Shown: positions 4,192 to 32,000 of the stretch, piece by piece
Layout of the letters: each line of letters opens with the position of its first letter
How positions within the stretch are numbered: the stretch's first letter is position 1
From: Candidatus Micrarchaeum sp.
GTDB lineage: Archaea; Micrarchaeota; Micrarchaeia; Micrarchaeales; Micrarchaeaceae
DNA length: 32,000 nucleotides
Direction of reading: 5' to 3'
Assembly (NCBI RefSeq): GCF_016806735.1
Contig: NZ_CP060530.1
Span: 240,001 to 272,000, forward strand
Notes under the pieces: generated by a model
Told to the model about the DNA's origin: nothing
The model's input: the letters and a program-made list of their open reading frames with translations, nothing else
Databases searched by the model: none
Program-made: the position numbers and the translations under genes

Positions 4192-4201
4192 GTTATTGCT
4201 T

Positions 4202-6700: not shown

Positions 6701-6729
6701 TTATGGGCAAGTTATCAATATCGGGTATT

Positions 6730-7299: not shown

Positions 7300-7371
7300 C
7301 GCCTCGGTCGGGATTCGAACCCGAGTCGCAACCGTGACAGGGTCGTATGCTAACCACTACACCACCGAGGC
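7300..7371 (-). tRNA. tRNA-Asp (anticodon GTC), no intron, CCA not encoded
   Basis: Manual fold of the reverse complement. Acceptor GCCTCGG/CCGAGGC, anticodon stem CGACC/GGTTG, loop CTGTCAC, T-arm TCGGG-TTCGAAT-CCCGA, discriminator G. Confidence 0.9.
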
Positions 7372-10383: not shown

Positions 10384-10985
10384 GCATGCATGGAAAGGAG
10401 CCAAAAGACGAAAACTTCGGTTTCTTCACGTCGAGGCTTTACAAAGTATTCTCGAACACTTTTCCAAGCATGAAATCATTCTACTCGTTCATACTTTCCG
10501 ACATCGCGAATTACAAGTTCTCATCCATGCTAGACATAGGTTGCGGCCCAGGTATTCTGGATGTGAAAATTGCGCAGATGTTTCCCAAAGCCAAAATATG
10601 CGGGATAGATCCATCAAAGGACATGATAAAGCAGGCGGATTCGCTCTCCAAGCGAATGGACATCAAAAACCTCGAATTCGCAATAGGCAAAAACACCGAA
10701 ATACCCTTCGATCTTCAATTCGATATTGTGATAACTACCTTGTCATTCCACCACTGGGCTGTAAAGCGCAAGGCCTTGGAATACATAGCCAAGCGCATTG
10801 CTCCCCGGGGCAAAATGGCAATATATGAATTCCTCAAGCCCGAAAAGGGCATGGGAATTTCTGGAAGCCATTCGCTTAGCGTAAGGGAAGCAAATACATA
10901 CTCCAATATTCCCGGCCTTGAGCCGGCAAAAGTGTCAACAGAAAAAGGATTCATAAAGGTAATTCTGGAAAAGTCTTCTAAGTAG
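10380..10985 (+). CDS. class I SAM-dependent methyltransferase
   Basis: Motif I LDIGCGPG, followed by ICGIDPS and DIVITTLSFHHW. ATG 10380 overlaps the cysS TGA as ATGA, which suggests translational coupling. The track start 10362 lies inside cysS. Confidence 0.75.
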   Translation: MSMHGKEPKDENFGFFTSRLYKVFSNTFPSMKSFYSFILSDIANYKFSSMLDIGCGPGILDVKIAQMFPKAKICGIDPSKDMIKQADSLSKRMDIKNLEFAIGKNTEIPFDLQFDIVITTLSFHHWAVKRKALEYIAKRIAPRGKMAIYEFLKPEKGMGISGSHSLSVREANTYSNIPGLEPAKVSTEKGFIKVILEKSSK

Positions 10986-13347: not shown

Positions 13348-13497
13348 AAACAGACCAAACTCGCTACTGAAAATTAAGTCAATAAAGCCTTTTTGTTATG
13401 AACTTTTTTAATGCTTATCCTAACATTCATGGCATCTAGCCTAAAAATGCCTGCCAGCCTTTACGATAAAGAAAATAAAAATACTAATAAATATATC

Positions 13498-13511
13498 AGA
13501 TAAATATACAT
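13498..13511 (+). promoter_or_regulatory. TATA-like box (gataaatatacata) upstream of the surface-protein operon; GGAG Shine-Dalgarno-like element at 13537-13540
   Basis: Lies in the 198-nt AT-rich divergent intergenic region between aglB (ATG 13347, minus strand) and ATG 13546. Pattern only. Confidence 0.3.
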
Positions 13512-13545
13512 ATCGAACTATGCCGCGCTCAGGTCTGGAGATATC

Positions 13546-15552
13546 ATGGATACCACAAAATACAAAGCGATAGCTTTCGTCTTCATGTTTTCATTTATTC
13601 TCATTGCATCCTATTCATCATATTCGAATGCGAATACGGTTGCTGTCAATGCTTCGATAAATGCCGTGTGCCAGTTCGCACTGTACAATACGCATTCTGT
13701 CGTTTATCCGCTGCTCTCAAACATTTCGGTCAGCTTTGCCTCCCAAGATCTTGCAAACTGCTCAATATCAAGCATGCCAGGCACTATGACAGTTTTCTAT
13801 CCTAACGGTACCAGAGCCTTGAACTTCAGCTCTGAGTTCTACAATTTTACAGATTCCCAGACACAATACAATTTTCCCGCTTCTTTCAACGGCCTCAAGC
13901 AGGGCAATTATACCGCAAACATAACCCTCAAAGAGACGCCCACATACAAAAATTCGACTACAATATCGCTAATACTTCTCAATCCTCCGAACGTTATAGC
14001 CAGCAACATGATAGTGGGAAACGTAAGCTATGGCTCTCAGCTTCCTGTTTCCCTGCGCCTCCATAACAACGGTTCCCTGGCCTCAAACACGATCACGCTT
14101 TATATAAGAATAAACGGCACTGCCGCGTTCAATAAAAGCTATGTCCTAAGCCCAATAGCCCCTAACCAGACATTCCCAATAATACTGTCACTAAGCAATG
14201 TCACCAACACTCCCGGCCCATACAAAATATATGCATATGCTGGCTTCAGCGAATATGGCAGGACGTTCCTGTCTAATGTGGTAAAGGCGAACTACACCGT
14301 TCCATCTCCTCCCTCTACTTCGAAAATACCCTCTAACAGAACTACTACGCCAATAGTAAAGCCTCCTTACGTGGAGATAACTACGGTGCCTATATACTCT
14401 TCAATACCTTACGGTACTTCTGCCGTATCGTCGCTAGGGCTTAAAGACATAATAGCACAGCCAGAAACCGTCACGCTAAGCATAAACAGCTCGTATTCCA
14501 ACCTGATGAGCATTTCGGCTACTTCCCTTTCGCTCAAAGCGAACCAGACCGAACTGGTGCAGGTATACGCCAATGGAAAATCCAACAAGCCAGGCAGCTA
14601 CATAGTTCCGATAGCGATAAACGCCACCTTGGCTAACGGCACATCATCCCTGCAAACCGAATATGTATCGTTTACCGTTTACAATAAGACAAATTCAACG
14701 GCATCAATAAATTACAACGTAGCTCTGCAAAATGACACAACGTCCGCTCTAGGCACTGTTACAGTTTCAGGTGCCGTAAATACGAGCCTGAAGAACACAA
14801 CACTGCTCACCATAATACCGGAGGCAGAGGTTTCATCGTCAAACGACATAAACGCCTACGGCCTGCCTAACAGGATAGAAGTCGTCAACAATTCCTATTA
14901 TATAATATGGAACATAAGCAGCATACCCGCATCCAAGCAGGTAATAGTGTATTATTCGATAAGTAATCCGAAAAGCCAGTCTCTTCTCAGCGACATACAG
15001 AACATACTATACTCTCCTTCTTCCATATCCTTCCTCAAGCTTTTCAAGATAACAAGCCTTTCACTCCCCACGCTCTTTACAAATTCATACGGGCTAATCA
15101 ACGTTTCTGCAATATATACTGGGGTATTGCCGAGCACGGTATCGCTTTATCTCGTAAGCTCCACCGGGCTCAAGGCCATAAACGCTTCATACAGCCAGGG
15201 TATAGTGCCAAACCAGCAGGTTTTCCACTCTTTCAGGGTAGCTTCAGGTCCGGTTCCTGGGACGTATCTGCTGTACATGTATGCTTCCGCTGCAGGCGTA
15301 AACTACAACTATACGCTGCCCCTGCTGGTTGAAAAGCTGGTTCCATCAACTACCGTGCTCACAACAGTGCCGCCTACTCCGGTGCTCGAAAGAAACATAT
15401 ACACCTATGCCGCTTATGCGGCTATCGCCATAATATTGATAGCAATCGCCACGTACGCTGCATATAAATATAAAAACAAGCCCAGATACAATCCGAAAGT
15501 TGCAAAGGAGCTTGTAGAGATCACCAAAAAGGAGCGTTCTAAGAAGGGTTGA
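13546..15552 (+). CDS. secreted, C-terminally membrane-anchored, sequon-rich beta-sandwich (CARDB-like) surface glycoprotein; S-layer-type candidate
   Basis: Sec-type signal MDTTKYKAIAFVFMFSFILIASYSSYSNA. Very dense N-x-S/T sequons (NAS, NIS, NCS, NGT, NFS, NFT, NYT, NIT, NST within the first ~130 aa). CARDB-like segments, e.g. LRLHNNGSLASNTITLYIRINGTA...GPYKIYAYAGF and FRVASGPVPGTYLLYMYA. C-terminal TM YAAYAAIAIILIAIATYAAY followed by the basic tail KYKNKPRYNPK...KKERSKKG. Confidence 0.7.
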   Translation: MDTTKYKAIAFVFMFSFILIASYSSYSNANTVAVNASINAVCQFALYNTHSVVYPLLSNISVSFASQDLANCSISSMPGTMTVFYPNGTRALNFSSEFYNFTDSQTQYNFPASFNGLKQGNYTANITLKETPTYKNSTTISLILLNPPNVIASNMIVGNVSYGSQLPVSLRLHNNGSLASNTITLYIRINGTAAFNKSYVLSPIAPNQTFPIILSLSNVTNTPGPYKIYAYAGFSEYGRTFLSNVVKANYTVPSPPSTSKIPSNRTTTPIVKPPYVEITTVPIYSSIPYGTSAVSSLGLKDIIAQPETVTLSINSSYSNLMSISATSLSLKANQTELVQVYANGKSNKPGSYIVPIAINATLANGTSSLQTEYVSFTVYNKTNSTASINYNVALQNDTTSALGTVTVSGAVNTSLKNTTLLTIIPEAEVSSSNDINAYGLPNRIEVVNNSYYIIWNISSIPASKQVIVYYSISNPKSQSLLSDIQNILYSPSSISFLKLFKITSLSLPTLFTNSYGLINVSAIYTGVLPSTVSLYLVSSTGLKAINASYSQGIVPNQQVFHSFRVASGPVPGTYLLYMYASAAGVNYNYTLPLLVEKLVPSTTVLTTVPPTPVLERNIYTYAAYAAIAIILIAIATYAAYKYKNKPRYNPKVAKELVEITKKERSKKG

Positions 15553-15563
15553 GGTTCTTCAAA

Positions 15564-16310
15564 ATGACAAAAACATATAGCATAATCATTGCTTCCATAA
15601 AGGGCGGTGTCGGAAAGACCACCGTGGCGGTCAACCTTGCAATAGCGCTAAGCATAGCCGGATACAAGACATTGCTCTACGAAATGGACACGGTAAATCC
15701 GGGGGTGGGCTATCACCTAGGCAAGCTTGACGACGAATCCCGCGTTCAGGTTTACAAACCGACTGGGCTTCAATATGTTCCTGCACGCGTATCAGAATCT
15801 TCCGATGCAATGGTGCCAGAGCGCGTCTCGCAGCTGGAATCGGAAATTAAAAATGGCGACTATGATTTTGTGATAGTAGACACGCAATCGGCCGAAAAAT
15901 CCCTGTTGAAGAAACATTTTGACAACGGCCTTATAATAATAAATCCGGACGAGCAGTCTTGCGCTGCCGGAATAATGGCCAAAGACATGGTCGAATCTTC
16001 AGGTGCCAAATGCAATATAATGCTGAACAGGGGGTTCGAAAAGCCTTATGCGCTTAGCGACAAAGAGATAGAAGAGATGTTTGGAACTCCGATAATGGCC
16101 AGGGCAGAAGAGGACCTTTCGTTGCGCAAGAGCCTTCTGAGCCATGTTCCGAATGTCCTGACAGAAAATGCACCTAAATTCAATGACCAGATAAACAAGC
16201 TGGCGAGAGTATATGCTGCGATGATTGACGAAGATTACGCGCAAAAGTTCGAAAATTTCAGCAAGGAACTCAACAGGGCGAAATCCGAAATCAAAAAATT
16301 GCAGAAGTAA
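15564..16310 (+). CDS. MinD/ParA-family (SIMIBI) P-loop ATPase with deviant Walker A
   Basis: SIKGGVGKTTVAVNLA (xKGGxGKT deviant Walker A with signature Lys), Walker B-like DFVIVDT, and a C-terminal charged/amphipathic stretch NFSKELNRAKSEIKKLQK. GAGGT lies 8-12 nt upstream of ATG 15564. The track start 15549 (TTG) overlaps the upstream stop. Confidence 0.8.
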   Translation: MTKTYSIIIASIKGGVGKTTVAVNLAIALSIAGYKTLLYEMDTVNPGVGYHLGKLDDESRVQVYKPTGLQYVPARVSESSDAMVPERVSQLESEIKNGDYDFVIVDTQSAEKSLLKKHFDNGLIIINPDEQSCAAGIMAKDMVESSGAKCNIMLNRGFEKPYALSDKEIEEMFGTPIMARAEEDLSLRKSLLSHVPNVLTENAPKFNDQINKLARVYAAMIDEDYAQKFENFSKELNRAKSEIKKLQK

Positions 16311-16323
16311 AACACTTGGTCGA

Positions 16324-16470
16324 ATGAGAAGCGAAACAGTCAAAGCGTCTGCAGGTTTTGCAGGAAAGCCACTAAGGCAGCAGAGCGTTGTGGAATTCGT
16401 ACTTACATATGGCTGGGCCATACTTCTCATTGCCATAGTGCTGGGTGCGATGTACGCTGTCGGCCTTTTC
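16324..16470 (+). other. class III (type IV pilin-like) signal peptide and hydrophobic pilin helix
   Basis: Short basic leader ...KPLRQ | QSVVEFVLTYGWAILLIAIVLGAMYAVGLF. With cleavage before the second Gln, Q is +1 and E is +5. The E[FY].xTYGWAIL helix is the form I recall from archaeal class III signal peptide proteins. Confidence 0.7.
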
Positions 16471-19400
16471 AGGCCCAGCATACCTACAACATGCCTTCCA
16501 AATTCCGGGTATCTGTGCGAATCCCCTATAATGAATACTAGCGGCTATGTTGCAGTAAAGTTCGGAACTGTCAACCAGCAAAACATAGTAATAACGGGCC
16601 TGGGATGCTCGAGCGGAGACGTCGTGCCTTCAAATATAAGCTCAACCAATCTGCCTGTTTCCTCTGGCCAAGTAAAAGCCCTTGTCTTCAAGTGCCCGGT
16701 CCAGGCCCATTCAATAAATTCGCATTTTACCGGCACTCTATGGCTTCAATATACTTCCGACGGCATACCTGGCCAGCTGGGCGAAATTGGTACTCTTAGC
16801 GCGGCCGAAAGCACTCCTGACATAGTCGCTACTGCTTTCGTAAGTTCAAATTCCACATCAACAAGCACAAGCACGACTTCGACTAGCACATCCACAACTA
16901 CCACTTCAACTTCAACGACTTCAACTTCTACCACTACCTCTACGTCTACTATTCCGTACGTGCCAATAATACTTAAAAATTCACAGTCGTCAAACACTCC
17001 TGCGCCGTTCCAGCAGATGGTCATAGCCAACAGCACAAAATACGCAAGCTATATCCATTCCGGATGGTCCAATGTCGAATTCACCACCGGGCCAGCAGCA
17101 ACTGGCAATACTATAAGCGCATGGATAGAAAGCAATGCAACAAATTCATCCAAGACTACCGTAGTATGGCTAAAACTATTGTCAGGAATAAAAGCAAACA
17201 ATTCCAGCGTAGTATACATGGATTTCATGCCTGGCAATGTGCTGTCCTCCAACGGGCCAACCGGCGAAGCTCCTCAGCTTTCGCCATCATACGCCGAATA
17301 CGACGACGGTGCAAGCGTGTTCGACTTCTACGCTAATTTCGCAGGAACATCTTTGTCGTCAAACTGGACGTCTGGAGAAAGCGACGGAACCATTTCGGTA
17401 AATAACGGATTGACGGAAACAATACCGTATGATGCTGCAACTGGCAGCTATACATATGTTTCTACCTCACTGTATAAAATCAATGGTCCCGTAATTGCAG
17501 AAAGCTATGCCAACCTGAACGGGTTTGATACTACTAATTTCAGGATGGTCCCGGTAGCATTAACTCAATACAATAATCAGACTTGGCACGCAGATAATAG
17601 TGAAAATGAAAACGCAGCGGGGTGGTCTGGTAATGTTCAGGCCAATCCAACAATATCGGCAGAAACAACTACTTCGTCAGCAGCTGACGAATTTGAAAGT
17701 TCACAGATTTCGTCAAGTAACGCCTATCAATTATTTGGAATATTATATCCAGATAATGGTTCTGTATCAGTCCAATATAATTACCAAAATTGGGGTTCAA
17801 CAACAACTTACGTGCCATCAACACCTCTTTATCTGACAATATCGAATTGGTTAAATCCGGCGCAATCGGAGTACTCAACAACATATCCTATTAATGTTGA
17901 TTGGATACGTGTACGCGCATATCCGCCCAACGGCGTAATGCCTTCTGTCACTTTCTGGAATCAGGATGCTTCGCCATTATTAAAAATACAGAATAATACA
18001 ACAGTTTATGCATCATCAAATGATATAATAAATGCAACCGCCCTATTTCCAAATACAAGCATCGAACTACTAAGAAACGGTAGTGTCATAGCTTCCGGGA
18101 CGGGCAGCGTATCGTATATATTGAATTCCAACAGCAGTTCTACATGGGCGGCAGGCAGATACTATATAACCGCTTACGAACCCGGGGTAGGGGTTCCAAA
18201 CACTATACAAAATATTACTATATCAAAAGCAACTCCAAAAATAAACGAAAGCGTAAGCAATCTCAATACATTTAACACAGGAACAATTTACAACTACAGC
18301 ATCAAATATTCTGTAAATTCCTTCGACAACCAGCTTGATGCATACCTTTCAATAAATGGGATAAATGTATCATCAACTAACTCCATAAGCACCTACACTT
18401 TCAATATGTCAAATACTACTTCATTTTATGCTTTTACACCTGGCAACGCCAACTATACTGCGGTTGCCTTAAACAAGACAAGCGTGTATGTGGTAAGGTA
18501 TCCGTACTACGTGCCCATAACAATATACAACAACCAGTCAAGCAATACTCCGGCCCCGTTCCAGCAGCTCATAAAAATAAACATGTCAAAATACGCTAAT
18601 TATGCATCCGATAACCTTAGCAACATTTTCTTCTTCTACCAAAACAAGACTATAATACCTTCTTGGCAGGAGAGTGGCACAGCAGGGGCTACATTCAACG
18701 GCGCGCCTGCTTATATGATGCAAGAAGGCGGATATAAATGGATGAACAACGCAGCACAGCACTTTACAATATCTATATGGGTAAATCCTTCCTCACCAAA
18801 CGGCGTAATACTAGACGAGCTGAACCAAAGCGATAGCTGGCATGACTCCTGGCTAGACTTAGTTAATGGAAACGTACAAATGAGGATATGGAATCTAGGG
18901 TGCGTGAATCTCGGTGCTATACCAGATAATCAGTGGAGCAACATAGTAATGGAGTACAACGGTTCTACTTATTCCGGATACATTAACGGCAACTTTGCCG
19001 GATCTGGCACCGGAACGCGTTCGGTCCCTGGCGGTTCATATGCCCTGTCCTACGCACTTGGCAAGAACGATACAACGAATTGCGGCTCAGGCTCTGCATT
19101 TGACGGGCTTATGCTTAACTACCAAATATACAACACAACGCTGCAGCCCAGCGGCATAAAAAGCATATATTCAAATGGAAAATACGGAACACCTCCATTC
19201 AATTCGTCCGAAGGGCTAAGCGGCTGGTGGCAGCTCAAATACAACTCCAGCGCACAGGAAGGCGGTGACAACATGGTATACAGCAACGTCAACTTTACAA
19301 GCTTGAATACTTATTATTGGCTCAAGCTCAATAATGGCATACCTGCGAACAGCAATCTTACTGTATACATGGGCTTCGCCAACAAGAGCGACATGCTGTT

Positions 19401-25400: not shown

Positions 25401-28400
25401 CGAATTCGGCCAGAACGACACGATAACTGCAACGTCAAACGTCACCGGAGACAATGTCAGCATAATAATAAACGGGAAGGTTGTGGCATCGGGCGCAGGT
25501 GCTGCATACTTCAATACTGCGTCGCTGGTTCCTGGAACGTACAACGCCACTGCTGAAGATACTGTGCAGCCGGCTTATTCGCAGCCCTTGCAATTCGAAG
25601 TGACCGGCCAGGTGGTTTCACCTGCAGGAATACTTAACTATGTTCCAATACTGATAACAAACAACCAGAGCGTAGCTACGAAAGCGCCATTCCAGCAGAT
25701 GATAGAAGTAAACGCCCAGAACTACGTCTCATACGAATCCGGAGGCATGCAAAATGTCGAATTCTCCTACTCAAACGGCACCATAATACCTTCGTGGTTC
25801 GAGGGCAGTCTGGCAAACGAATCCAAAACGACATCCCTCAACGAGTCTGCAGGCGATGTTTACTGGCTTAAAATAGCAAACGGCATCCCAGCAAAGAGCT
25901 CCATAACAGTATACATGGATTTCGCGGCAGTAGGCAAGAATCTGCTCAATTCAAATTCAACCGGAGAGGCCCCGCAGCTAAGCTCAACATATGCGCAATA
26001 TGACAACGGTGCGAACATATTCAACAATTATTGGAATTTCGCCGGGACATCGATGCCGAGCGGATTTACCGAATACTCAAATGGCGGTTCTACGAGCGTT
26101 GACAACGGCCTCAACATTGATCTTGCAAGCAGCGGAGATTATATGTCATTCGTATACGGGACTCCAATAAGTGCAAATGACACGATAGTTGAGACCTACG
26201 ATTCTGGAACAAGGGGCAATGGCCCTACAGACCTTGGAATGTACCAGTCAAACAGTGGCAGTGCAGGCGGCTATGCCGGCGTTGCAAACACGTGGGGCTG
26301 GGGATATGGCACCATAAGCAGCGGCTACAGCAACCTGGGCAGGCCTTTCGACATTTCCGACGGCGACGGTGTAGCTAGCATATACTGGATAGGCAGCGGA
26401 AACGAGGGCGTAGGGTGGAATTATGATTTTGTTTCAAGCACAAACACCAACGAGGCGTTCCATAGCAGCGCATACATGACAATCGGAATCGGCTATGCAG
26501 CTGCAGGCTCCGACATCAATTATTACTGGCTCCGCACAAGATATTATCCTCCCAACGGCGTAATGCCTTCAGTAGACTTCGGCACTGAGAGATCAACAAC
26601 TGGCGCTTATCTAAACATAAGGCACAATCCATCGCTCTACAGGACAAACGACACTTTCACCGCAATAGCTTCGAATGCCACTTACATAATAGAAATACTC
26701 AAGGACGGCACCCTTGTCTCAAGAGGCTCGGGCAGCACTTCCTACACCGAAAACGATTTTGCCATAGGCGCATACAATATAACTGCAGACAACCTCAACA
26801 CCGGCAATACTACAACGCTAAAACTTTCAGTGATACAAAATCCTCCAAGGCTGAGCGTATCTAAAACAAAGCTTCTATTCGGCCAGGAGGACACAATAAG
26901 CGCCTATTCGAACGTCACCGGAGACAAGATTGCGATAGAAATATCCAATTCCATAGTTTCTGAAGGAATAAACAACGCCACATATGCAGAAACAAACTTA
27001 AGCATAGGCAACCACACGGTAGTGGCTGAAGACCTAAACGCCAGCAACTTGGCCCAGTCGGCACCACAGGTCATAACGGTTCTCAAGAACCCGCCAAGGC
27101 TTGAGATTGAATCCTCAAATTCGCCTTACGGCAAGGACGACAATATCACTGCAATATCCAATGTCACCGGCAACAGGGTTCAGATACTGGTCAACAACGC
27201 AATAGTCGCGAACGCAACTGGCACCACAGTATACAACGCCAACACGCTGACAGTCGGTACATACAACATAACAGCAAGGGACATAAGCCCCAACGACACT
27301 TCGCAGACGTCCAACACCCTTACCATAGAACCTCCAAACATAGAGCTATATTTCACATCCAATCCGAGCTTCTATGGCAACAGGAACGAAATTACCGCGG
27401 AAGCCTCGATTGGCATCGACAACGTTACGCTTAGCATAAACGGAAACTTAGTGGCAATAGGCGTTGGCAAGGCTAACTTCACAGAATCAAATTTCAGCGT
27501 GGGCAACTATACTGTCCAGGGCTGCGACACTACTGCGAAGTTCTGCACAGCCAATACAACGCTAAGGGTGGAGCCGAACCCTCCACTGCTGACAATCCAG
27601 CACAATCCGATGCTGTACGATCAGGACAACAACATAACTGCAAAAGCCAACAATACTGGGTCAGGCATAAAGCTGCTGATAAATGGCACGGTTGTAGAAA
27701 ACGGCACCAATGAGGTCTTCTACAACGCGAAATCGCTGGCTCTCGGCACATACAACATAACCGCGGAAAGCCTGAGCGACAACGTGCTTGCGGTAACAAC
27801 TGCAAAACTCACAGTCAACAAGAACCTTCCGATACTGTCGATACAGAACCGCACTCCGCTATACAGGAATACAAACCTCATATCGGTGCTGGCAAATGTA
27901 ACAGGATATCCGATAGAGCTCTTAATAAACGGCACAGAGGTGGCCAACGGAATAGGAAACATAACCTATGATGCGGACACGCTCAAGCCTGGCAACTATT
28001 CTGTCATAGCTGCAGATACAAATTCGTCCAATCCATCTACCGTAAATTCCACGATAAAGGTCCTGGCTCCAAAGGTATCAATAACTCCTGTCAAAGGATC
28101 ACCGGAATACGGGCTTAACTTCACCCTTGAGGCCAACACCACGCAGAAACTCGATACCGTCAACATGTCAATAGGCAACACTCTTATAGGAAGGTCAGCT
28201 TCGCATTTCAACTATACAGAGGACAATTTGAGCATAGGCACATACAACATAACCGCGTGCGATGTCAATGCAAGCGTGTGCGCAAAGTACTCGCTCACAA
28301 TATCCAAAAATTATCCTTCGCTGAAGCTCAGCCAGAATCCGTCGCCATACGGAACTCCGAACTATGCAACCGTAAACACGTCACTGCACGGCAAGGTTGT

Positions 28401-31400
28401 TGCGCTCTCGATAAACGGAAACGTCGTGGCACGTTCGCCGAACGGCCTGGTATACAACCTTACAAACCTGACCACGGGCACTTACAGCCTACTCGCACAG
28501 GTCAACGACAGCGCGGATGACAACGCCACGACTTCGGTATCGCTTTCAGTAACGACCCCGCAGGCATACATAAGGATAAGCAACGACCCGGAGCTCTTCA
28601 ACCAGAGCGGCTACATAAACGCCTCGGCTTCGCTCAAGACCGCTCCTGTTGCGCTTTACATAAACGGCACCAAGGTTGCCAATGCAACCGGCAGCGTATC
28701 GTACAGCGAGGCCAAGCTAAAGATAGGCAGCTATTCGATAAAGGCCTGCGATACGTATTCAGGCGCGTGCTCGTACTCTTCGCTAGTGGTTGTGCCAAAC
28801 CCACCAGGGCTTTCGGTGCAATACTATAAGCCGCTCTACAACCAGAACGACACGGTAGTGGCTGTGACAAACATAAGCAGCTACGGCATACAGGTAAAGC
28901 TCAATGGCAACGTCATAGCGAACAATACCAAGTTTTACAGCTTCAATACAAAGGGCTTTGCGCCGGGGCTCTACAACGTGACTGCAACCGAACTGGATGC
29001 AAACGATTCGTACGCCGAATCCACCGCCTTTATAACAGTGGAAAAGCCTGCGATAAGCCTAAGCTTTACAAGCAATACTCCATATTATTCTGCCACAGAT
29101 GTCATAAACGCAACAACCTCGCAGCCTTCTGACATTATAGCCCTATACATAAACGGCAACGTAATCTCAAAGTCCAAGTCAAGGGTCTCTTATTCGGAGA
29201 ACAGCCTTGCCATAGGCACATACAACATAACCGCATGCGATCTCAACGCGAGCTCGTGCGGTTCTGCCAAGATTTACGTAATGCCAAATCCTCCAATACT
29301 TGCAATAAAGAGGAGCCCTGAGCTGTACAGCGCCAACGACACGATAACGGCAACCGCAAACGTCACCGGCAACAGGGTTCAGATACTGGTCAACAACGCA
29401 ATAGTCGCGAACGCAACGGGCAGCGCCACTTACAACGCAAACGTGCTTTCTACCGGCACATACAACATAACAGCAAGGGACATAAGCCCCAATGACACTT
29501 CGCAGACGTCCAGGCAGCTTGACGTCATACCAAACCCTCCATTGCTCACAATCCAGCACAACCCGAACGTCTATTCAAGGAACGATACCATAAGCGCAAG
29601 GGCCAACCTGTCTCTGAACAGGGTGTCGCTCTTCATAAACGGCAAGGCAGTAGTATCAAACGCCATAAATGCCACTTACAATGCCAACGTGCTTGCAGTT
29701 GGCACATACAACATAACAGCAGAAGACCTAAACGCCAGCAACATAGCTTACTCCACTGAATACCTCTCCATAGTGCCAAACCCTCCGCTGCTCACAATCC
29801 AGCACAACCCAGTTTTGTACGGCGTCAACGATTCCATAAGGCTGGAATCAAACATAACAGGAAACCCTGTGGCACTATTCATAAACGGCACAGAAGTGGC
29901 CAACGCCATAGACAATCTGACTTATGTGGAAAATGCATTGGCGATAGGCAACTACATACTGACGGTCAAGGACACAAGCCCGTCCAACCCTGCAAGCTTT
30001 AACACTACTCTATACGTGCTTCCAAACGATCCGCTGCTAAGGGTACAGGGCAATCCGGCTATGCCAGGGCAGAACGATACGATAAGCGCCATAGCAAACA
30101 AGAGCAGCGATTCTGTAGAGCTCCTGATAAACGGTACCGAAGTGGCATCGGGCATCGGAACCGTAAACTACGACACCAACAGGCTTGCCGTAGGGTACTA
30201 TTCATTGGTTGCTGTCGACACCGTACAGCCGGCGTATTCGAAGAAACTGGTGTTCGCGGTGGCGAACACGCCGATTGCTCCTACAAACATAACATCGCTC
30301 ATACCTATACTCATAACAAACAACCAAAGCGTAGCTACTCCGTCACAGTTCCAGCAGCTGCTGCACATAAACAGCAGCGCCTATTCGACTGCCGAAAAGG
30401 CAAACCTCTCCAACGTTGAGTTCTTCTACGGCAACGGCACAGTGATACCCGCATGGATAGAGCAGAACGCAACATCATCTTCAAAACAGACTGCTTATTG
30501 GATAAAGCTGCTTTCAAGCATACCTGCAAAAGGCAGGCAGATAGTGTACATGGGCTTCTCGAACTCCGACATATTCTCACAGCACACAACCGGAGAAGCT
30601 GCACAGCTCTCTTCAACCTATGCAGAATACGACAACGGGCAGAATGTCTTCAATTATTATACGGACTTTGCAGGGACTAGCGCCAATACTAGCCAGTACA
30701 CTGTCAACGGTATAGCAACTATAGACAACGGGCTGATTCTGCCTCCGGGCAACAAGACCAGCTACGTTTCAAGCGTCAAGGAATACGATACCGCAACAAA
30801 CGAGTCCGACATATACTGGGATGCAACTACGCCGCTCAAGAACGCAATAACGCTTGGATACAACGCTTCGCACTCAGTCACAGTAGTGAACGCACTGTTC
30901 TGGGCCGTCAACAACCATAACTACAGGCTATTTACCGCAAAGAGCATATTCAACAACTTCGAGAACGGGCTGGACCTTTCCGGGGATTACGTGTTCTCCA
31001 ACTACAACATAGGCAACAGAAGCTACGGCTCATATTCAAGCCTGGCACAGGAGCAGAACTATACGTCATACAATACGTCAACATACTCATTCAACAGCAA
31101 GGCGTTCCTGCAGGTTGAGAACAACCCGAACAACAGGACCACAGGCGTTTCGGTAGATGTCTACTGGATGAGGACAAGGTCAACGCCTCCAAACGGCGTA
31201 ATGCCATTAGCAAGCTACGGGCTTCTCCACACTCATTCGGTTGGCAGCTGCAACATAACTGCTTCAACGAGCCGCATAAGCCTGGGCACGCTGTTCGCCA
31301 ACACCAGCGAGGCGACCAAGGAGCCGATAGCGCTTACAAACCACGGCAACTCAACTGCGTACGTATACGCATACGGCAGCAAATGGGTATCGCAGTCGCA

Positions 31401-31608
31401 CTACTTCGGCCCGACAAACACTACGTACGCCAACCTAACCGGGGTTCCATGGGCTCTTGCAGGAAGGATATTCAACATACAGAGGAACTGGATAGTCAGC
31501 ATAGCACCTGGCTCCTCGGCGACAGTGTACATAGGTGCAGACATACCGAACTCCACCTATGAAGGCAATTACTCGCAGAGCATATACTTCGTGAGCGACT
31601 GCGCCTGA
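16324..31608 (+). CDS. giant (5,094 aa) pilin-anchored surface protein: class III signal + 7 DUF2341-like/lectin-like modules + ~27 Ig-like units + Cys-bracketed C-terminal domain
   Basis: Single open frame. The track start 16225 is replaced by ATG 16324, 13 nt after the MinD stop, which yields MRSETVKASAGFAGKPLRQQSVVEFVLTYGWAILLIAIVLGAMYAVGLF. The domain order was read directly from the translation (see sub-features). All minus-strand ORFs inside are shadow ORFs. Confidence 0.85.
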   Translation: MRSETVKASAGFAGKPLRQQSVVEFVLTYGWAILLIAIVLGAMYAVGLFRPSIPTTCLPNSGYLCESPIMNTSGYVAVKFGTVNQQNIVITGLGCSSGDVVPSNISSTNLPVSSGQVKALVFKCPVQAHSINSHFTGTLWLQYTSDGIPGQLGEIGTLSAAESTPDIVATAFVSSNSTSTSTSTTSTSTSTTTTSTSTTSTSTTTSTSTIPYVPIILKNSQSSNTPAPFQQMVIANSTKYASYIHSGWSNVEFTTGPAATGNTISAWIESNATNSSKTTVVWLKLLSGIKANNSSVVYMDFMPGNVLSSNGPTGEAPQLSPSYAEYDDGASVFDFYANFAGTSLSSNWTSGESDGTISVNNGLTETIPYDAATGSYTYVSTSLYKINGPVIAESYANLNGFDTTNFRMVPVALTQYNNQTWHADNSENENAAGWSGNVQANPTISAETTTSSAADEFESSQISSSNAYQLFGILYPDNGSVSVQYNYQNWGSTTTYVPSTPLYLTISNWLNPAQSEYSTTYPINVDWIRVRAYPPNGVMPSVTFWNQDASPLLKIQNNTTVYASSNDIINATALFPNTSIELLRNGSVIASGTGSVSYILNSNSSSTWAAGRYYITAYEPGVGVPNTIQNITISKATPKINESVSNLNTFNTGTIYNYSIKYSVNSFDNQLDAYLSINGINVSSTNSISTYTFNMSNTTSFYAFTPGNANYTAVALNKTSVYVVRYPYYVPITIYNNQSSNTPAPFQQLIKINMSKYANYASDNLSNIFFFYQNKTIIPSWQESGTAGATFNGAPAYMMQEGGYKWMNNAAQHFTISIWVNPSSPNGVILDELNQSDSWHDSWLDLVNGNVQMRIWNLGCVNLGAIPDNQWSNIVMEYNGSTYSGYINGNFAGSGTGTRSVPGGSYALSYALGKNDTTNCGSGSAFDGLMLNYQIYNTTLQPSGIKSIYSNGKYGTPPFNSSEGLSGWWQLKYNSSAQEGGDNMVYSNVNFTSLNTYYWLKLNNGIPANSNLTVYMGFANKSDMLFNKLTTGEAPQLSPSYAEYDDGASVFNNYWNFAGTTLPSGWTSTTDFTGSVNNGLTVTSSSAWAGVASGAITASPPIILDAYDEVTSEQAANIGFSSGTSFSSTYSYYDSYQYLQASGSSYTTANIYYATSSAQTAIVTGTLPTASNSGYNVYSAVFTASNVAQLQNYASVDSASTTDLSSASYVFASVYSGATEKIQWMRTRAYPPNGVMPSYNIGLTYAPAAPELLINKSTISYGHTDAIATSSQISGDEVELSINGNVVSGPTSNTINYDFPISVPGTYIVNATNINNSKTTSLQITVVKAVPEIHGPKPGFYSNSYNSTYSISTVSNQLTGNLYVNGVKVSATNSSNTIELNALGTYALIFNTTGNANYTSATTGIINVDIINQSVPYKIPDNIYYYSVVHVHNSQSVPTIKQPQEYLQINASAFENYINYNYSSANFEFFSANGTIVPGWIIDNVSGEIGIWLKLPESIPAGSNETVYLGFAQKATNLLSSSGTTGIGEAPQLSSTYAEYDDGTGVFQAYFNGVTPLSDFSVQSGYSSAQASGQCATSLNCRSSTVYYIKSSGSGARAFDVAYNKAFPDNATLVLGSNIDTTLTNEGFVSLGAASMSSSPPGIDYSAGNGDSLSTTWLQGGNYGGSPGSTSSTPPPYLYYEMSYVPGASDVVSTIYDEGASVSYNNYIPSSYSGGLYIGIASATEYVNELDYSSWMAAAQSTSTGVFPAANVTRNAQPVGSIELLINSQRENTTLNYSIINITATSLSGIYSTDTVEVLLNGNIICTGVGTCTYDSPIAASTSTYNVTAKNLNTSAERTFGLKVDKAVPEIRTNAPYYGINNGTMYYSVNTINSQIRAYLYVNGVQVSNTISESSYVVNAIGNYSLYASTPGDSNYTNFTTPTKTMHIIPSPKFFIPILITNNQSVATPAPFQQELTFNSLTYKYAEAGNLDNVLFFYANGTVVPSWLESGNSNTSTSTIYWLNISHGIPAKSSITVYLGITAKNYSVFNNVSIGEAAQLSSPYGEYDNIAHVMDKGLLYQIWGWGGSGIQSQSELYQSSMTPGSSFTFGTTTATASQTLYNANFTGVTEDVDGSSEPYVIINYQNGYSGGAPPPNPPVSNDNFWLLKAIGFVHYTSGVSLYGIADDAIGLGYSQYSTGSIGSWIGGTNNPNNTISEWKAEGATVYSGTISSSGDYPIELDFENQNGPGYIGMWSNSPLNYYSAAYPPDGVMPSAGVEAINGPPALNITYDTIAYSNTTDYIYATGRPSNNTVEILINGNVVDTGIGTLNYTLPILPAGTYKIEAYDTNKNLSTNGTITIIKAVPEITETSGGTYSKNYTIGFASNTVNDQLTLNLYVDNAIVASTNSVSDYPINKVGNYTFFAGTAGNANYTARNLTLQQLHVIPKQVPSIVPNDIAYYVPIVIANNQPVATPAPFQEMLTVDSALYKQYENGSLENVKFFYSNGTTVPSWLYSGNSNHSTSSIYWVKLSGGISADSYQTIFMGFSTMEAVIMNNRTTGEAPQLSKVYGQYDDIAGVMNPGLLYEVYYNGAVTGCVPTDNDVYAAVVYSGYSINGSCSPITSSTLPSLTPVTGTSQSVDGTGENNVLINVEGGYTGGSPFPNPPVSNYDDIIVTKSIGFADSKQPVNFYVKIDDAGQLGYSNYTLNGSEENWLGSYSNSYNIINEWHAEAATQYNGIVTGTGAYRIQYDYANQGGPGYWSLWSNSSVNYYSPSAQPNGVMPAYTTGQLGYGMNRLIIANNPAQYHVKSGVIAVGLNLTNNIDIYVNGSFVKNGTGIVNYTEDNLPLGNFSVKSVNLATSNTITENLRIIPNDPFLIIQFPQSLYGDQNNITGISNVTGDRIELRLEDGVILSTASNTVVYDGNTLKPGKYNITAIDLNQPAYSQTKSLTILPPNVTLSIQHQTALYYTNDLLNATTSQPLDHVTIAINGTVVANSTSKTSYTENSLPLGVYPVQACDADSLTCTNIENLTIAPNDPHISIQNRLAEFGQNDTITATSNVTGDNVSIIINGKVVASGAGAAYFNTASLVPGTYNATAEDTVQPAYSQPLQFEVTGQVVSPAGILNYVPILITNNQSVATKAPFQQMIEVNAQNYVSYESGGMQNVEFSYSNGTIIPSWFEGSLANESKTTSLNESAGDVYWLKIANGIPAKSSITVYMDFAAVGKNLLNSNSTGEAPQLSSTYAQYDNGANIFNNYWNFAGTSMPSGFTEYSNGGSTSVDNGLNIDLASSGDYMSFVYGTPISANDTIVETYDSGTRGNGPTDLGMYQSNSGSAGGYAGVANTWGWGYGTISSGYSNLGRPFDISDGDGVASIYWIGSGNEGVGWNYDFVSSTNTNEAFHSSAYMTIGIGYAAAGSDINYYWLRTRYYPPNGVMPSVDFGTERSTTGAYLNIRHNPSLYRTNDTFTAIASNATYIIEILKDGTLVSRGSGSTSYTENDFAIGAYNITADNLNTGNTTTLKLSVIQNPPRLSVSKTKLLFGQEDTISAYSNVTGDKIAIEISNSIVSEGINNATYAETNLSIGNHTVVAEDLNASNLAQSAPQVITVLKNPPRLEIESSNSPYGKDDNITAISNVTGNRVQILVNNAIVANATGTTVYNANTLTVGTYNITARDISPNDTSQTSNTLTIEPPNIELYFTSNPSFYGNRNEITAEASIGIDNVTLSINGNLVAIGVGKANFTESNFSVGNYTVQGCDTTAKFCTANTTLRVEPNPPLLTIQHNPMLYDQDNNITAKANNTGSGIKLLINGTVVENGTNEVFYNAKSLALGTYNITAESLSDNVLAVTTAKLTVNKNLPILSIQNRTPLYRNTNLISVLANVTGYPIELLINGTEVANGIGNITYDADTLKPGNYSVIAADTNSSNPSTVNSTIKVLAPKVSITPVKGSPEYGLNFTLEANTTQKLDTVNMSIGNTLIGRSASHFNYTEDNLSIGTYNITACDVNASVCAKYSLTISKNYPSLKLSQNPSPYGTPNYATVNTSLHGKVVALSINGNVVARSPNGLVYNLTNLTTGTYSLLAQVNDSADDNATTSVSLSVTTPQAYIRISNDPELFNQSGYINASASLKTAPVALYINGTKVANATGSVSYSEAKLKIGSYSIKACDTYSGACSYSSLVVVPNPPGLSVQYYKPLYNQNDTVVAVTNISSYGIQVKLNGNVIANNTKFYSFNTKGFAPGLYNVTATELDANDSYAESTAFITVEKPAISLSFTSNTPYYSATDVINATTSQPSDIIALYINGNVISKSKSRVSYSENSLAIGTYNITACDLNASSCGSAKIYVMPNPPILAIKRSPELYSANDTITATANVTGNRVQILVNNAIVANATGSATYNANVLSTGTYNITARDISPNDTSQTSRQLDVIPNPPLLTIQHNPNVYSRNDTISARANLSLNRVSLFINGKAVVSNAINATYNANVLAVGTYNITAEDLNASNIAYSTEYLSIVPNPPLLTIQHNPVLYGVNDSIRLESNITGNPVALFINGTEVANAIDNLTYVENALAIGNYILTVKDTSPSNPASFNTTLYVLPNDPLLRVQGNPAMPGQNDTISAIANKSSDSVELLINGTEVASGIGTVNYDTNRLAVGYYSLVAVDTVQPAYSKKLVFAVANTPIAPTNITSLIPILITNNQSVATPSQFQQLLHINSSAYSTAEKANLSNVEFFYGNGTVIPAWIEQNATSSSKQTAYWIKLLSSIPAKGRQIVYMGFSNSDIFSQHTTGEAAQLSSTYAEYDNGQNVFNYYTDFAGTSANTSQYTVNGIATIDNGLILPPGNKTSYVSSVKEYDTATNESDIYWDATTPLKNAITLGYNASHSVTVVNALFWAVNNHNYRLFTAKSIFNNFENGLDLSGDYVFSNYNIGNRSYGSYSSLAQEQNYTSYNTSTYSFNSKAFLQVENNPNNRTTGVSVDVYWMRTRSTPPNGVMPLASYGLLHTHSVGSCNITASTSRISLGTLFANTSEATKEPIALTNHGNSTAYVYAYGSKWVSQSHYFGPTNTTYANLTGVPWALAGRIFNIQRNWIVSIAPGSSATVYIGADIPNSTYEGNYSQSIYFVSDCA
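16843..16950 (+). repeat. Ser/Thr low-complexity linker (SSNSTSTSTSTTSTSTSTTTTSTSTTSTSTTTSTST)
   Basis: About 36 codons of almost pure ACN/TCN/AGC codons between the 4-Cys N-terminal head and the first DUF2341-like module. Confidence 0.9.
16951..17946 (+). other. module 1: DUF2341-like + ConA/LamG-like domain
   Basis: IPYVPIILKNSQSSNTPAPFQQMVI...NVEFTT...ISAWIES...VVWLKLLSGIKANNSSVVYMDF...GEAPQLSPSYAEYDDGASVF...NFAGTSLSSNWTS...VDWIRVRAYPPNGVMPS. Confidence 0.6.
17947..18498 (+). repeat. Ig-like pair 1 (type B unit + type C unit)
   Basis: B: ...IELLRNGSVIASGTGSVSYIL...GRYYITAYE...ITISKATPKI. C: ...NQLDAYLSINGINVSSTNSISTYTF...FTPGNANYTAVALNKTSVYVV. The same B+C pair recurs after modules 2, 3 and 4. 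Confidence 0.55.
18499..20037 (+). other. module 2: DUF2341-like domain interrupted by a nested LamG-like domain, then ConA/LamG-like domain
   Basis: YPYYVPITIYNNQSSNTPAPFQQLIKI...IIPSWQESG[~165-aa insert]...YYWLKLNNGIPANSNLTVYMGF...GEAPQLSPSYAEYDDGASVF...IQWMRTRAYPPNGVMPS. Confidence 0.6.
18694..19185 (+). other. nested Laminin_G_3-like (ConA-like lectin) insertion inside module 2
   Basis: FNGAPAYM...HFTISIWVNPSSPNGVILDE...LVNGNVQMRIW...IPDNQWSNIVMEYNGSTYSGYINGNFAGSG...ALGKND...FDGLMLNYQIYNTTLQPSGIKSIYSNG follows the Laminin_G_3 consensus as I recall it (FtvsaWv...W.hva.tydG....lYvdG......lG.....f.G.iDevriynraLs..ei..ly). Confidence 0.6.
20038..20592 (+). repeat. Ig-like pair 2 (B + C)
   Basis: ...VELSINGNVVSGPTSNTINYDF..GTYIVNATN...ITVVKAVPEI ; ...NQLTGNLYVNGVKVSATNSSNTIEL...NTTGNANYTSATTGIINVDI. 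Confidence 0.55.
20593..21567 (+). other. module 3: divergent DUF2341-like + lectin-like domain (degenerate terminal motif)
   Basis: YYYSVVHVHNSQSVPTIKQPQEYLQI...FEFFSANGTIVPGWIID...IGIWLKLPESIPAGSNETVYLGF...GEAPQLSSTYAEYDDGTGVF... It ends ...STGVFPAA instead of PPNGVMPS. Confidence 0.5.
21568..22122 (+). repeat. Ig-like pair 3 (B + C)
   Basis: ...VEVLLNGNIICTGVGTCTYDS...YNVTAKN...LKVDKAVPEI ; ...SQIRAYLYVNGVQVSNTISESSYVV...STPGDSNYTNFTTPTKTMHII. Confidence 0.55.
22123..23085 (+). other. module 4: DUF2341-like + PA14-like domain
   Basis: FFIPILITNNQSVATPAPFQQELTF...VLFFYANGTVVPSWLES...IYWLNISHGIPAKSSITVYLG...GEAAQLSSPYGEYDN, then LLYQIWGWGG...FWLLKAIGFVHYTSGVSLYGIADDAIGLGYS...GDYPIELDFENQNGPGYIGMWSN...YPPDGVMPS (PA14-like pattern). 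Confidence 0.5.
23086..23637 (+). repeat. Ig-like pair 4 (B + C)
   Basis: ...VEILINGNVVDTGIGTLNYTL..GTYKIEAYD...ITIIKAVPEI ; ...DQLTLNLYVDNAIVASTNSVSDYPI...GTAGNANYTARNLTLQQLHVI. Confidence 0.55.
23638..24612 (+). other. module 5: DUF2341-like + PA14-like domain
   Basis: YYVPIVIANNQPVATPAPFQEMLTV...VKFFYSNGTTVPSWLYS...IYWVKLSGGISADSYQTIFMGF...GEAPQLSKVYGQYDD, then LLYEVYYNG...FYVKIDDAGQLGYS...GAYRIQYDYANQGGPGYWSLWSN...AQPNGVMPA. Confidence 0.5.
24613..25638 (+). repeat. tandem array of 4 Ig-like units (~80-90 aa each)
   Basis: Units begin ...RLIIANNP, PNDPFLIIQ, PPNVTLSIQ, PNDPHISIQ. The third carries the Cys pair ACDADSLTC (TGC at 25312 and 25333). Confidence 0.65.
25639..26571 (+). other. 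module 6: DUF2341-like + ConA/LamG-like domain
   Basis: YVPILITNNQSVATKAPFQQMIEV...VEFSYSNGTIIPSWFEG...VYWLKIANGIPAKSSITVYMDF...GEAPQLSSTYAQYDNGANIF...NFAGTSMPSGFTE...YYWLRTRYYPPNGVMPS. Confidence 0.6.
26572..30300 (+). repeat. tandem array of 15 Ig-like units (average ~83 aa / ~249 nt)
   Basis: Unit boundaries were read from recurring N-P-P-x-L-x-I/V and P-x-I/V-x-L starts. The core is ...NVTG..V.L.INGT.VA...G...Y.A..L..GTYNITA.D... Four units (4, 7, 9, 11) belong to a Cys-pair subtype. Confidence 0.75.
30301..31206 (+). other. module 7: DUF2341-like + ConA/LamG-like domain
   Basis: IPILITNNQSVATPSQFQQLLHI...VEFFYGNGTVIPAWIEQ...AYWIKLLSSIPAKGRQIVYMGF...GEAAQLSSTYAEYDNGQNVF...DFAGTS...VDVYWMRTRSTPPNGVMP. 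Confidence 0.6.
31207..31605 (+). other. C-terminal ~130-aa Cys-bracketed domain of unknown family (no TM or sorting signal)
   Basis: LASYGLLHTHSVGSCNITASTSRISLGTLFANTSEATKEPIALTNHGNSTAYVYAYGSKW...SIAPGSSATVYIGADIPNSTYEGNYSQSIYFVSDCA. One Cys lies near each end, the pattern looks beta-rich, and there is no hydrophobic tail. Confidence 0.5.
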
Positions 31609-32000
31609 TCAAGCAAGGCATCTTCTTTGCGCTATGCAAACAAAAGCCCCAAGATACAATATAATATACTATAAAGGCCATATGTATGCAAGGCCATTGC
31701 ATTGTTGCTGGCAAATACGCTACATTGGCTTTGCATATCATGCAATTTTGCACTCAATAACTGTATTTCCATCGCTAGTTTACGCGTGCATACGGAAAAT
31801 ACCATAAAAGCGGAAAATCCCTGTTTCGAGGCACAAATCCGTTGATAAAAGAAACCAACCCTGACAATCAACGTAGTTCGGTATTAAACGTATAAAACAA
31901 ATTTTAAATAAGTCCAAAGCTTTAAATACTTTTCATAAAATGGTATTCACAAACAAACGTGTAAAGCGTTTAAGTGATAGAATGAAAAGTCTAAACCCAA

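Follow-up and report, generated by a model that had tools for sequence, protein, structure and literature searches.

A stalk protein, a MinD-type ATPase and a large adhesin form a conserved gene cassette of Micrarchaeota with a probable role in host attachment

We analysed a window of 32,000 nucleotides (nt) of Candidatus Micrarchaeum sp. (contig NZ_CP060530.1, positions 240,001 to 272,000) and found in it three consecutive plus-strand genes for a membrane-anchored stalk protein, a MinD/FlhG/FleN-type ATPase and a predicted giant modular surface adhesin. The stalk and ATPase genes, usually together with a gene for a large secreted protein, form a unit that is conserved across Micrarchaeota. 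With moderate confidence, we favour the reading that this is a conserved cassette of stalk, MinD-type ATPase and large adhesin in which the ATPase is coupled to the stalk and which attaches the cell to its host; a role in host attachment is probable. The proteins of the window are exact matches to Ca. Micrarchaeum records, and the window comes from Ca. Micrarchaeum harzensis A_DKE, whose genome is closed; this acidophilic DPANN archaeon is in cultivation, with a Thermoplasmatales species that has no cell wall as its host (PMC8975820). Host recognition and attachment by DPANN archaea is an open question, and Ca. M. harzensis is among the few cultivated systems for which a transcriptome, a proteome and cryo-electron tomography (cryo-ET) exist.

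The stalk gene Micr_00289 (13546-15552, plus strand; 668 amino acids, exact match to QRF73770), the ATPase gene Micr_00290 (15564-16310, plus strand; 248 amino acids from ATG, exact match to QRF73771) and the giant gene Micr_00291 (16324-31608, plus strand; 5,094 amino acids from ATG, QRF73772 by accession order) are tightly spaced. Only 11 nt (15553-15563) separate the stalk gene from the ATPase gene, with GAGG standing 8 nt 5′ of the MinD ATG, and 13 nt (16311-16323) separate the ATPase gene from that of the giant. An earlier sequence-only reading of the same window had given these open reading frames (ORFs) and gaps, all of which proved exact on re-checking, and had proposed that the three genes are co-transcribed. 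Published supplementary tables list co-culture mRNA levels of 0.93, 1.40 and 0.95 transcripts per million (TPM) for Micr_00289, Micr_00290 and Micr_00291, respectively; for scale, the same tables give 1.43 for SMC and 0.53 for SufB. Cassette genes thus have ordinary and mutually similar mRNA levels. The tight three-gene unit and the similar levels are compatible with one transcript, although TPM values do not prove one.

The order of the first two genes is kept well beyond the genus. We compared 11 distant loci, namely L010 and ten GTDB Micrarchaeota loci (L014-L023) found by a pattern scan from a five-sequence subset of the stalk family sharing REQIKRS; ten of the 11 are labelled Micrarchaeota. 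In 11 of 11, a MinD-like gene comes next after a stalk gene, and in ten of them the pair has a gene for a large secreted protein downstream. The stalk and ATPase genes overlap by 8-17 nt in all ten GTDB loci (first-start ORF calls). In L010 and L011, genes for the stalk, the ATPase and a protein of 1,138 residues are consecutive and have an NADH dehydrogenase operon as their upstream neighbour; the MinD-like protein there is 35% identical and the stalk protein 27% identical (for L010 over 660 residues, E 2e-49). Inside the genus (L001-L009), the whole order CysRS (cysteinyl-tRNA synthetase), methyltransferase, STT3, stalk, MinD and giant is collinear, with the stalk gene followed by a MinD-like gene in L007-L009. 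In this comparison, which the sequence-only reading had suggested as a check, synteny is kept for the stalk-MinD pair and mostly for the large protein, whereas adjacency to the aglB-like (STT3) gene is confined to the genus. Five loci (L018, L019, L020, L022 and L023) carry tandem ATPase duplicates inside the cassette, and L020 and L023 have a third ATPase paralogue with KGGVGKS. Two other MinD-like proteins, P0018 and P0025 (28-29% identity), have different gene neighbourhoods; we regarded them as separate paralogues and left them aside. A further conserved gene of the cassette, here termed fam3, encodes a protein of about 255 amino acids that begins with a hydrophobic leader, probably has a membrane segment and gives weak Pfam matches to Ig-like families (L010 15370-16122; L016 19349-20113; L018 17686-18465; L020 18498-19286; L023 19530-20300); it has no significant family assignment, and no copy of it is seen in the window, whose last codons are the first of the S-layer gene.

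The plan of Micr_00289, a predicted type I membrane protein, as modelled by AlphaFold2 from a 64-sequence alignment (pLDDT 84.7, pTM 0.70), is a signal peptide, five immunoglobulin (Ig)-like β-sandwich domains, a disordered stalk segment, a membrane helix (residues 618-643) and a cytoplasmic helix (650-666). Word-indexed searches, whether started from the 668-residue protein or from a profile of 30 sequences, reached no further than one set of 10 close relatives; we therefore used an exhaustive profile search, which gave 215 representatives, 147 of them at E ≤ 1e-30. Family members mostly have 650-690 residues; those that lack the first domain have about 550. The stalk protein matches no family in Pfam or NCBIfam; it is annotated as hypothetical in published tables, and Foldseek with the model returned only generic tandem-Ig matches (TM 0.13-0.23). 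The label 'CARDB-like', applied to it in the sequence-only reading, rests on a sub-threshold match to CARDB PF07705 (16.9 bits against a threshold of 22.7) and has to be given up; the model shows generic Ig-like sandwiches only. S_layer_N and TIGR01564 domains match neither Micr_00289 nor Micr_00291.

Conservation within the stalk family draws attention to its cytoplasmic end. The membrane helix and the 25-residue tail (residues 644-668), delimited by model and conservation, are encoded at 15397-15549 on the plus strand. The tail is conserved as strongly as the best-conserved part of the ectodomain, with a mean top-residue frequency of 0.49 compared with 0.48 for domain D5, 0.40-0.44 for D1-D4 and 0.26 for the membrane helix. 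Its consensus is P-[RK]-Y-x-x-[ED]-R-A-x-x-L-x-R-[IL]-[RK]-E-Q-I-K-R; Y648, R652, L656 and R665 are present in 50-52 of about 61 sequences, and the near-invariant set also includes I663. Short basic peptides of partner proteins engage ParA/MinD-type ATPases in several systems, among them MinE, ParB and CapA. Since the tail is a short, basic and constrained cytoplasmic helix, and since the stalk gene runs into the ATPase gene, we infer that the tail is probably the contact for the MinD-like ATPase.

Micr_00290 is assigned to arCOG00589 and matches Pfam CbiA, ParA and AAA_31. Its match to TIGR01969 (minD_arch; 6.8e-17) scores 61.5 bits, below the cut-off of 201.75, and KEGG labels it 'septum site-determining protein MinD'. 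The P-loop reads SIKGGVGKTT; across 18 ATPases of the cassette, the deviant Walker A and P-loop lysines (K13 and K18) and the switch and Walker B aspartates (D42 and D106) do not vary. With the family profile, the closest solved proteins are archaeal MinD (1HYQ, 1ION and 1G3Q; 3e-39 to 7e-36), followed by bacterial MinD, FlhG and FleN and then by CapA/CapB chimeras at about 1e-18. Judged by these profile matches, Micr_00290 belongs to the ParA/MinD superfamily, yet is not a curated MinD. It ends in the charged sequence ...FSKELNRAKSEIKKLQK and has no amphipathic C-terminal helix, whereas other cassette ATPases end in a MinD-like amphipathic helix of the GFFxxLxRLFGR type; the ATPases of the genus Micrarchaeum have lost this helix as well as a 15-residue insert that all other cassette copies keep. 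That helix loss and divergence of the stalk tail occur in the same genus is weak evidence of a possible co-divergence or co-evolution of the two. No tyrosine cluster was found at the C-terminus of Micr_00290 (two tyrosines in the last 40 residues), and the bacterial tyrosine kinase model TIGR01007 scored 37.8 bits against a cut-off of 108.

The giant is ordered as a leader with QSVVEF and a helix, a four-cysteine domain of about 125 residues, a Ser/Thr linker, a long series of modules and repeats, and a C-terminal domain. Its prepilin-like (class III-like) N-terminus (16324-16467, plus strand), recognized by motif only, has a basic leader, R-Q-Q-S-V-V-E-F and a 24-residue hydrophobic helix, which would place Glu at +5 if cut before QS; the residue at -1 would be Q, where G or A is canonical. 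Relatives share the conserved sequence R-Q-Q-S-A-M-E-F-L-L-T-Y-G-W, and in L010 and L020 other large proteins, encoded no more than 10 kb from the cassette, have N-termini with QSA[IT]EF. No class III signal or prepilin profile of Pfam or NCBIfam matched the N-terminus of the giant, and a single-sequence model of it is poor (pLDDT 52), with a helix at 22-45 followed by a β-rich region. Of the description 'pilin-fused', the motif thus stands, but it lacks hidden Markov model (HMM) support and the canonical -1 residue.

Seven full copies of a DUF2341 plus LamG-like lectin module were delimited on the plus strand with an internal-repeat HMM (E 1e-93 to 1e-126): module 1 at 16966-17958, modules 2-4 at 19159-20049, 20608-21582 and 22135-23097, and modules 5-7 at 23650-24624, 25648-26583 and 30307-31221. 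A partial DUF2341 start (residues 732-795) is followed by Pfam Laminin_G_3 (18754-19158, plus strand; 5.3e-14, 53.1 bits against 27.6); DUF2341 itself is borderline in Pfam, at 23.1 and 24.1 bits against a threshold of 23.4. The same internal-repeat approach revealed 24 Ig-like repeats, 15 of which (about 76 residues each) form a consecutive array at 26593-30246 on the plus strand, the other nine being scattered among the lectin modules; Pfam sees them as summed hits of Big_3_5 and BiPBP_C. Tandem Repeats Finder detected no DNA-level repeats in the giant gene, so the copies have diverged. A protein of 1,364 amino acids elsewhere (L024 8831-12925, JGI Ga0080006_1231658) has a DUF2341/LamG module that is 32% identical to the last module of the giant. 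Around it lie about 15 small same-strand ORFs without a match in the other loci examined, a context resembling an archaeal virus or provirus, and the module may act there as a receptor-binding protein.

The giant ends in a β-rich domain of about 125 residues (31222-31605, plus strand), which we term Cys-capped. It is related to the 1,138-residue protein of L010 (BLASTP 2e-13) and matches a family HMM built without the giant at 1.6e-17; in thirteen aligned copies a cysteine stands at the start of the domain and another at its last or penultimate residue, almost always the very last. Third-gene proteins that carry the domain differ in their heads, which comprise LamG, an NHL propeller, a Kelch propeller or Flg_new_2 repeats. 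In other cassettes it also occurs in small companion proteins, which consist of a hydrophobic N-terminus with one copy, of two tandem copies or of one copy alone. The domain has no relative in Pfam, NCBIfam or the PDB and is unrelated to the stalk family; it was not found in the DUF2341-headed third-gene proteins of L020 and L021, the latter being cut by a contig end. When binding proteins are interchangeable, the part that docks or assembles them typically stays constant while their heads vary, a pattern that suggests such a function for the Cys-capped domain.

These features can be combined into a model in which the ATP-bound ATPase dimer would engage the basic cytoplasmic tail of the stalk, much as MinE, ParB and CapA peptides engage their ParA/MinD-type partners, and in this way would set the place and time of stalk insertion into the membrane. 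The Cys-capped domain of the adhesin could be docked by the ectodomain of the stalk, by small companion proteins or by both. In this genus the adhesin has expanded to 5,094 residues; by its prepilin-like helix the giant may be held in the membrane or be fed into pilus machinery encoded elsewhere, and it would project through the S-layer towards the glycan-covered membrane of the host, with its seven DUF2341/LamG modules binding host glycans. The cassette is a candidate for a phylum-wide attachment apparatus, with a testable coupling of the ATPase to the stalk tail and a prediction for the filaments seen at contact sites. Such thin filaments, between host and Micrarchaeon, have been described in cryo-ET of the co-culture (PMC8975820); equating them with Micr_00291 is speculation.

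Several observations weigh against this model. In the tail of the window's own stalk protein, V replaces R652 and S replaces R665, and several near-invariant residues are gone. L014 carries the stalk/ATPase pair without a large protein downstream, and the 933-residue third-gene protein of L020 has no Cys-capped domain. The giant has both an N-terminal membrane helix and a C-terminal docking-type domain, which the simple model leaves unexplained. Finally, the three cassette genes were not found in the supplementary file of the S-layer preprint, including its proteome table, and have about 1 TPM each; filaments made by the giant would therefore be rare.

The gene after the giant was overlooked in the sequence-only reading. 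Its first six codons (MKSLNP; 31983-32000, plus strand) are followed by the end of the available sequence at position 32000, and its identity comes from numbering order: consecutive accessions and locus tags, with an ORF starting at 31983 after a spacer of 374 nt, make it very probably slp (Micr_00292, QRF73773), the gene for the 978-residue S-layer protein SLP_Mh. A metagenome scan with the C-terminus of the giant did not recover the source genome, its sole return being a distant virus-like locus. SLP_Mh is the top-ranking protein of the proteome, and its transcript holds third place (supplementary tables of two papers on the organism), and numerous putative glycosylation sites and glycan staining have been reported for it. 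The spacer (31609-31982) has 36% GC and archaeal TATA-like TTTAAA boxes at 31903 and 31921. Given these boxes, this composition and an slp mRNA level of 124.8 TPM in the same co-culture tables compared with about 1 for the cassette, the spacer is probably a separate strong promoter; slp is clearly driven separately from the cassette.

Upstream, the stalk gene diverges from Micr_00288 (10978-13347, minus strand; 789 amino acids, exact match to QRF73769.1), which encodes an STT3/AglB-like protein and is annotated as AglB-like, arCOG02044, in the published tables. It matches PF02516 STT3 over residues 78-420 (1.8e-9, 38 bits against a cut-off of 24.5); its TIGR04154 score (5.8e-22, 77.9 bits) lies below the archaeal subfamily threshold of 450. 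Among the marks of oligosaccharyltransferases (OSTs) of the AglB/PglB type are an acidic D/ExD motif, which lies in the first external loop, and TIXE in loop EL5. Micr_00288 keeps both as EPD (FFEPDGFYHF) and TIQE (TTIQELQPP), as does its 74% identical orthologue in L007. The catalytic WWDYG motif of the C-terminal domain is replaced by VWPDG, a form also kept in L007, with AVWPDGS aligned opposite AWWDYGY of yeast Stt3 (2LGZ). By motif and profile it is a distant, divergent member of the STT3/AglB family with predicted OST activity. A second STT3 paralogue, Micr_00082, is encoded elsewhere in the genome and has an mRNA level of 1.73 TPM compared with 0.52 for Micr_00288. The divergent spacer (13348-13545, 198 nt) is AT-rich, with 33% GC compared with 47% for the window; the length and composition of the proposed shared promoter were confirmed, and we infer the promoter function itself from the sequence.

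The sequence-only reading had described both structural proteins as saturated with N-x-S/T sequons, and they do exceed a composition-matched expectation, with 31 sequons in the stalk (13.2 ± 3.1 expected) and 205 in the giant (112.6 ± 8.2 expected). The STT3 protein has 16, all within its extracellular C-terminal 260 residues, and cytoplasmic proteins of the window show no enrichment. As the ectodomain of STT3 is equally sequon-rich and the S-layer protein is glycosylated, the sequon load, by which all three extracellular proteins would be heavily N-glycosylated, reflects general envelope glycosylation and no dedicated partnership with the adjoining STT3. Outside the genus, the 10 kb around the cassette held no detectable STT3-like protein in all 11 distant loci, and the linkage inside the genus carries little information because the CysRS-methyltransferase-STT3 neighbourhood is wholly collinear there. 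We conclude that the OST, which had been counted as a member of the system, is not part of the conserved unit and that its link to the cassette is incidental. Nor is it the only enzyme nearby, as had been stated, since a methyltransferase and CysRS also adjoin the locus. In one sublineage, a GT2 glycosyltransferase gene lies directly 3′ of the cassette, in L018 (19039-19713) and L023 (20875-21549), and a GT4 (AglH-like) gene 4-5 kb upstream of it in L018 (4264-5313), L020, L021 and L023; at most, these neighbours amount to a loose envelope-gene neighbourhood, without an OST.

The main rival reading, which is compatible with the attachment cassette and follows a published model for similar gene sets, makes the cassette an accessory of the type IV pilus, in which the giant would act as a minor pilin of modular build or as a tip adhesin. 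The giant would be processed by an EppA-type peptidase and displayed on a FlaI/TadC pilus, the ATPase acting as a TadZ/FleN-type hub and the stalk as an 'S-layer-like' accessory. We consider this a possible explanation, though one on the unlikely side. It draws on the N-terminus of the giant, with its hydrophobic helix and potential Glu at +5, and on the QSA[IT]EF proteins near the cassettes of L010 and L020; moreover, the genome encodes FlaI (Micr_00422), Flp-like pilins (Micr_00375 and Micr_00425), TadC (Micr_00444) and EppA/PulO (Micr_00634). Clade 1 pilus loci hold large DUF2341 proteins, FleN/MinD ATPases and S-layer-like proteins (PMC4858521), and TadZ is related to arCOG00589 (PMC6668835). 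However, the window contains no gene for a pilus ATPase, platform, pilin or peptidase, and in the 11 distant loci no pilus genes were seen among those ORFs within 10 kb that we scanned or clustered. Third-gene proteins in other loci start with a Sec-like hydrophobic leader rather than a class III signal, and the giant itself has Q instead of G or A at -1 and no class III HMM match. Another, more doubtful proposal is that stalk, ATPase or ATPases, Cys-capped small proteins, fam3 and the variable-head protein form an undescribed, pilus-independent attachment organelle with filaments made of Cys-capped polymers. The Cys-capped domains would polymerise, possibly through head-to-tail disulfides between first and last cysteines that would be stable in acidic oxidising water; the polymers would be the filaments seen by cryo-ET, and the ATPase, acting on the stalk tail, would set their position and number from the cytoplasm.

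The remaining readings are all improbable. In Sulfolobales, SlaB, with β-sandwich domains and a C-terminal membrane helix, is the membrane anchor of SlaA, and the plan of the stalk protein is SlaB-like. The stalk could on this model anchor SLP_Mh in a module for S-layer anchoring or biogenesis, with the ATPase directing insertion of new S-layer, and in keeping with this slp is the next gene and the anchoring of SLP_Mh is stated as unknown (PMC8975820). The mRNA of the stalk, however, is 134-fold below that of slp (0.93 compared with 124.8 TPM), a gap that makes an anchoring role unlikely; slp has its own promoter region, Micr_00289 is not in the S-layer preprint supplementary file, where SLP tops the proteome, and S_layer_N matches none of the cassette-neighbour proteins scanned from other loci. 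No more credible is a dedicated OST that would specifically glycosylate two co-located structural proteins from a shared divergent promoter. The divergent layout, the strong sequon excess in both proteins, the STT3 adjacency kept in the related species L007 and the GT2 and GT4 neighbours are consistent with it, but the absence of STT3 within 10 kb in all 11 distant loci, the envelope-wide glycosylation, the degenerate WWDYG and the more highly expressed paralogue Micr_00082 argue otherwise. This tempting OST/glycoprotein idea is thus removed as unsupported. We give least credence of all to the idea that Micr_00290 is a normal MinD of cell division, placed by chance among surface-protein genes with which it has no connection: archaeal MinD is the best solved match and KEGG applies that name, but Micr_00290 scores far below the minD_arch cut-off, the linkage to the stalk is tight in every locus, five loci have tandem ATPase duplicates inside the cassette, and it is other MinD-like proteins, at 28-29% identity, that sit in unrelated contexts.

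Other features of the window were noted in passing. The methyltransferase gene (10362-10985, plus strand) overlaps the 3′ end of the CysRS gene by 22 nt and that of the convergent STT3 gene by 8 nt. An ammonium transporter (PF00909; 5371-6700, minus strand) is broken into three ORFs of 243, 113 and 70 amino acids, the first two of which are separate ORF calls in L002 and L003 as well, so that either a pseudogene or a frameshift common to strains is at hand. In GCA_041825655.1, a UPF0147 gene and an ORF of 184 amino acids replace the segment between the PolD small-subunit and DUF6114 genes, which in the window includes the ammonium transporter fragments and a HIT gene (window 4200-7200 compared with L001 733-1700); this segment is a strain-variable island. 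A tRNA-Tyr(GTA) gene (7911-8004, minus strand) is 94 nt long, a length that suggests an intron, and a tRNA-Asp gene lies at 7300-7371. A scan with bacterial promoter and terminator models, which are uninformative for an archaeon, gave nothing above shuffled controls. Proteins 87-100% identical to those of Ca. Micrarchaeum have been deposited as 'Candidatus Marsarchaeota archaeon', 'Methanothrix sp.' and 'Thermoplasmatales archaeon ARMAN'; these are probably mis-binned or mislabelled contigs of metagenome-assembled genomes, and we have corrected the taxonomy here.

The claim that the combination is not a described system was too strong, because the pairing of a FleN/MinD ATPase with a large DUF2341 adhesin has already been published. 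Makarova, Koonin and Albers (2016) described DUF2341 adhesin candidates, class III signals, arCOG00589 FleN/MinD and S-layer-like proteins in pilus loci (PMC4858521), and a 2026 preprint linked MinD-like ATPases with large Ig-rich adhesins as TFF subsystem 4G (10.64898/2026.04.22.720090). What does appear to be undescribed is the stalk family with its conserved tail, the obligate ATPase pairing and the Cys-capped family. The stalk and Cys-capped families are absent from Pfam, NCBIfam and the main text of the organism's papers, and we did not find the stalk/ATPase gene pair described in either of the two studies. Two protein families are hereby added for which Pfam and NCBIfam hold no model. 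The locus, which has no assembly ATPase, platform, pilin or peptidase, lies outside the definition of a type IV filament system.

Among known systems, the clade 1 (Epd-like) pilus loci of the 2016 model and TFF subsystem 4G of the 2026 preprint are similar to the cassette in combining an arCOG00589 ATPase with large DUF2341/Ig-rich adhesins and an 'S-layer-like' protein, and a role in adhesion has been proposed for them too. Proteins of those loci carry class III signal peptides, whereas the large protein of the cassette mostly has a Sec-like leader; the cassette also lacks the pilus ATPase, platform, major pilin and peptidase, has a stalk/ATPase pair as its core and belongs to a DPANN lineage, the Micrarchaeota. 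Bacterial TadZ/CpaE and FlhG/FleN and the MinD4 of Haloferax, all of the ParA/MinD type, are ATPases with a role in placing pili, flagella, archaella and chemosensory arrays. Like them, the deviant-Walker-A ATPase of the cassette is encoded with a surface structure and would be expected to exert spatial or numerical control rather than to supply assembly energy, but its proposed partner is the tail of a single-pass Ig protein, and the copy in the window has no amphipathic membrane-targeting helix. In the split bacterial tyrosine kinases CapA/CapB (PDB 3BFV and 4JLV), the C-terminal cytoplasmic tail of a membrane protein encoded just upstream activates a MinD-like P-loop protein; the cassette lacks the C-terminal tyrosine cluster, a two-helix activator of the Wzz type and genes for polysaccharide export, and the analogy is one of mechanism only.

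For the giant, the nearest parallels lie elsewhere. In modular type IV pilins with grafted lectin modules, such as PilC of Streptococcus sanguinis, and in tip adhesins of the PilY1 type, a pilin-like N-terminus is fused to a concanavalin-A-like (LamG) module. An analogy of large adhesins with PilY was drawn previously (PMC4858521). These have a single grafted module, whereas the giant, at 5,094 residues, has seven of the lectin type as well as 24 Ig repeats, and its processing is putative. The SPEARE proteins of Ca. Nanohaloarchaeum antarcticus, a host-dependent nano-sized archaeon, are very large, multi-domain, lectin-containing surface proteins with a presumed role in host contact. The domain set of the giant differs from theirs, and the giant is encoded in a conserved cassette together with a MinD-type ATPase and a stalk.

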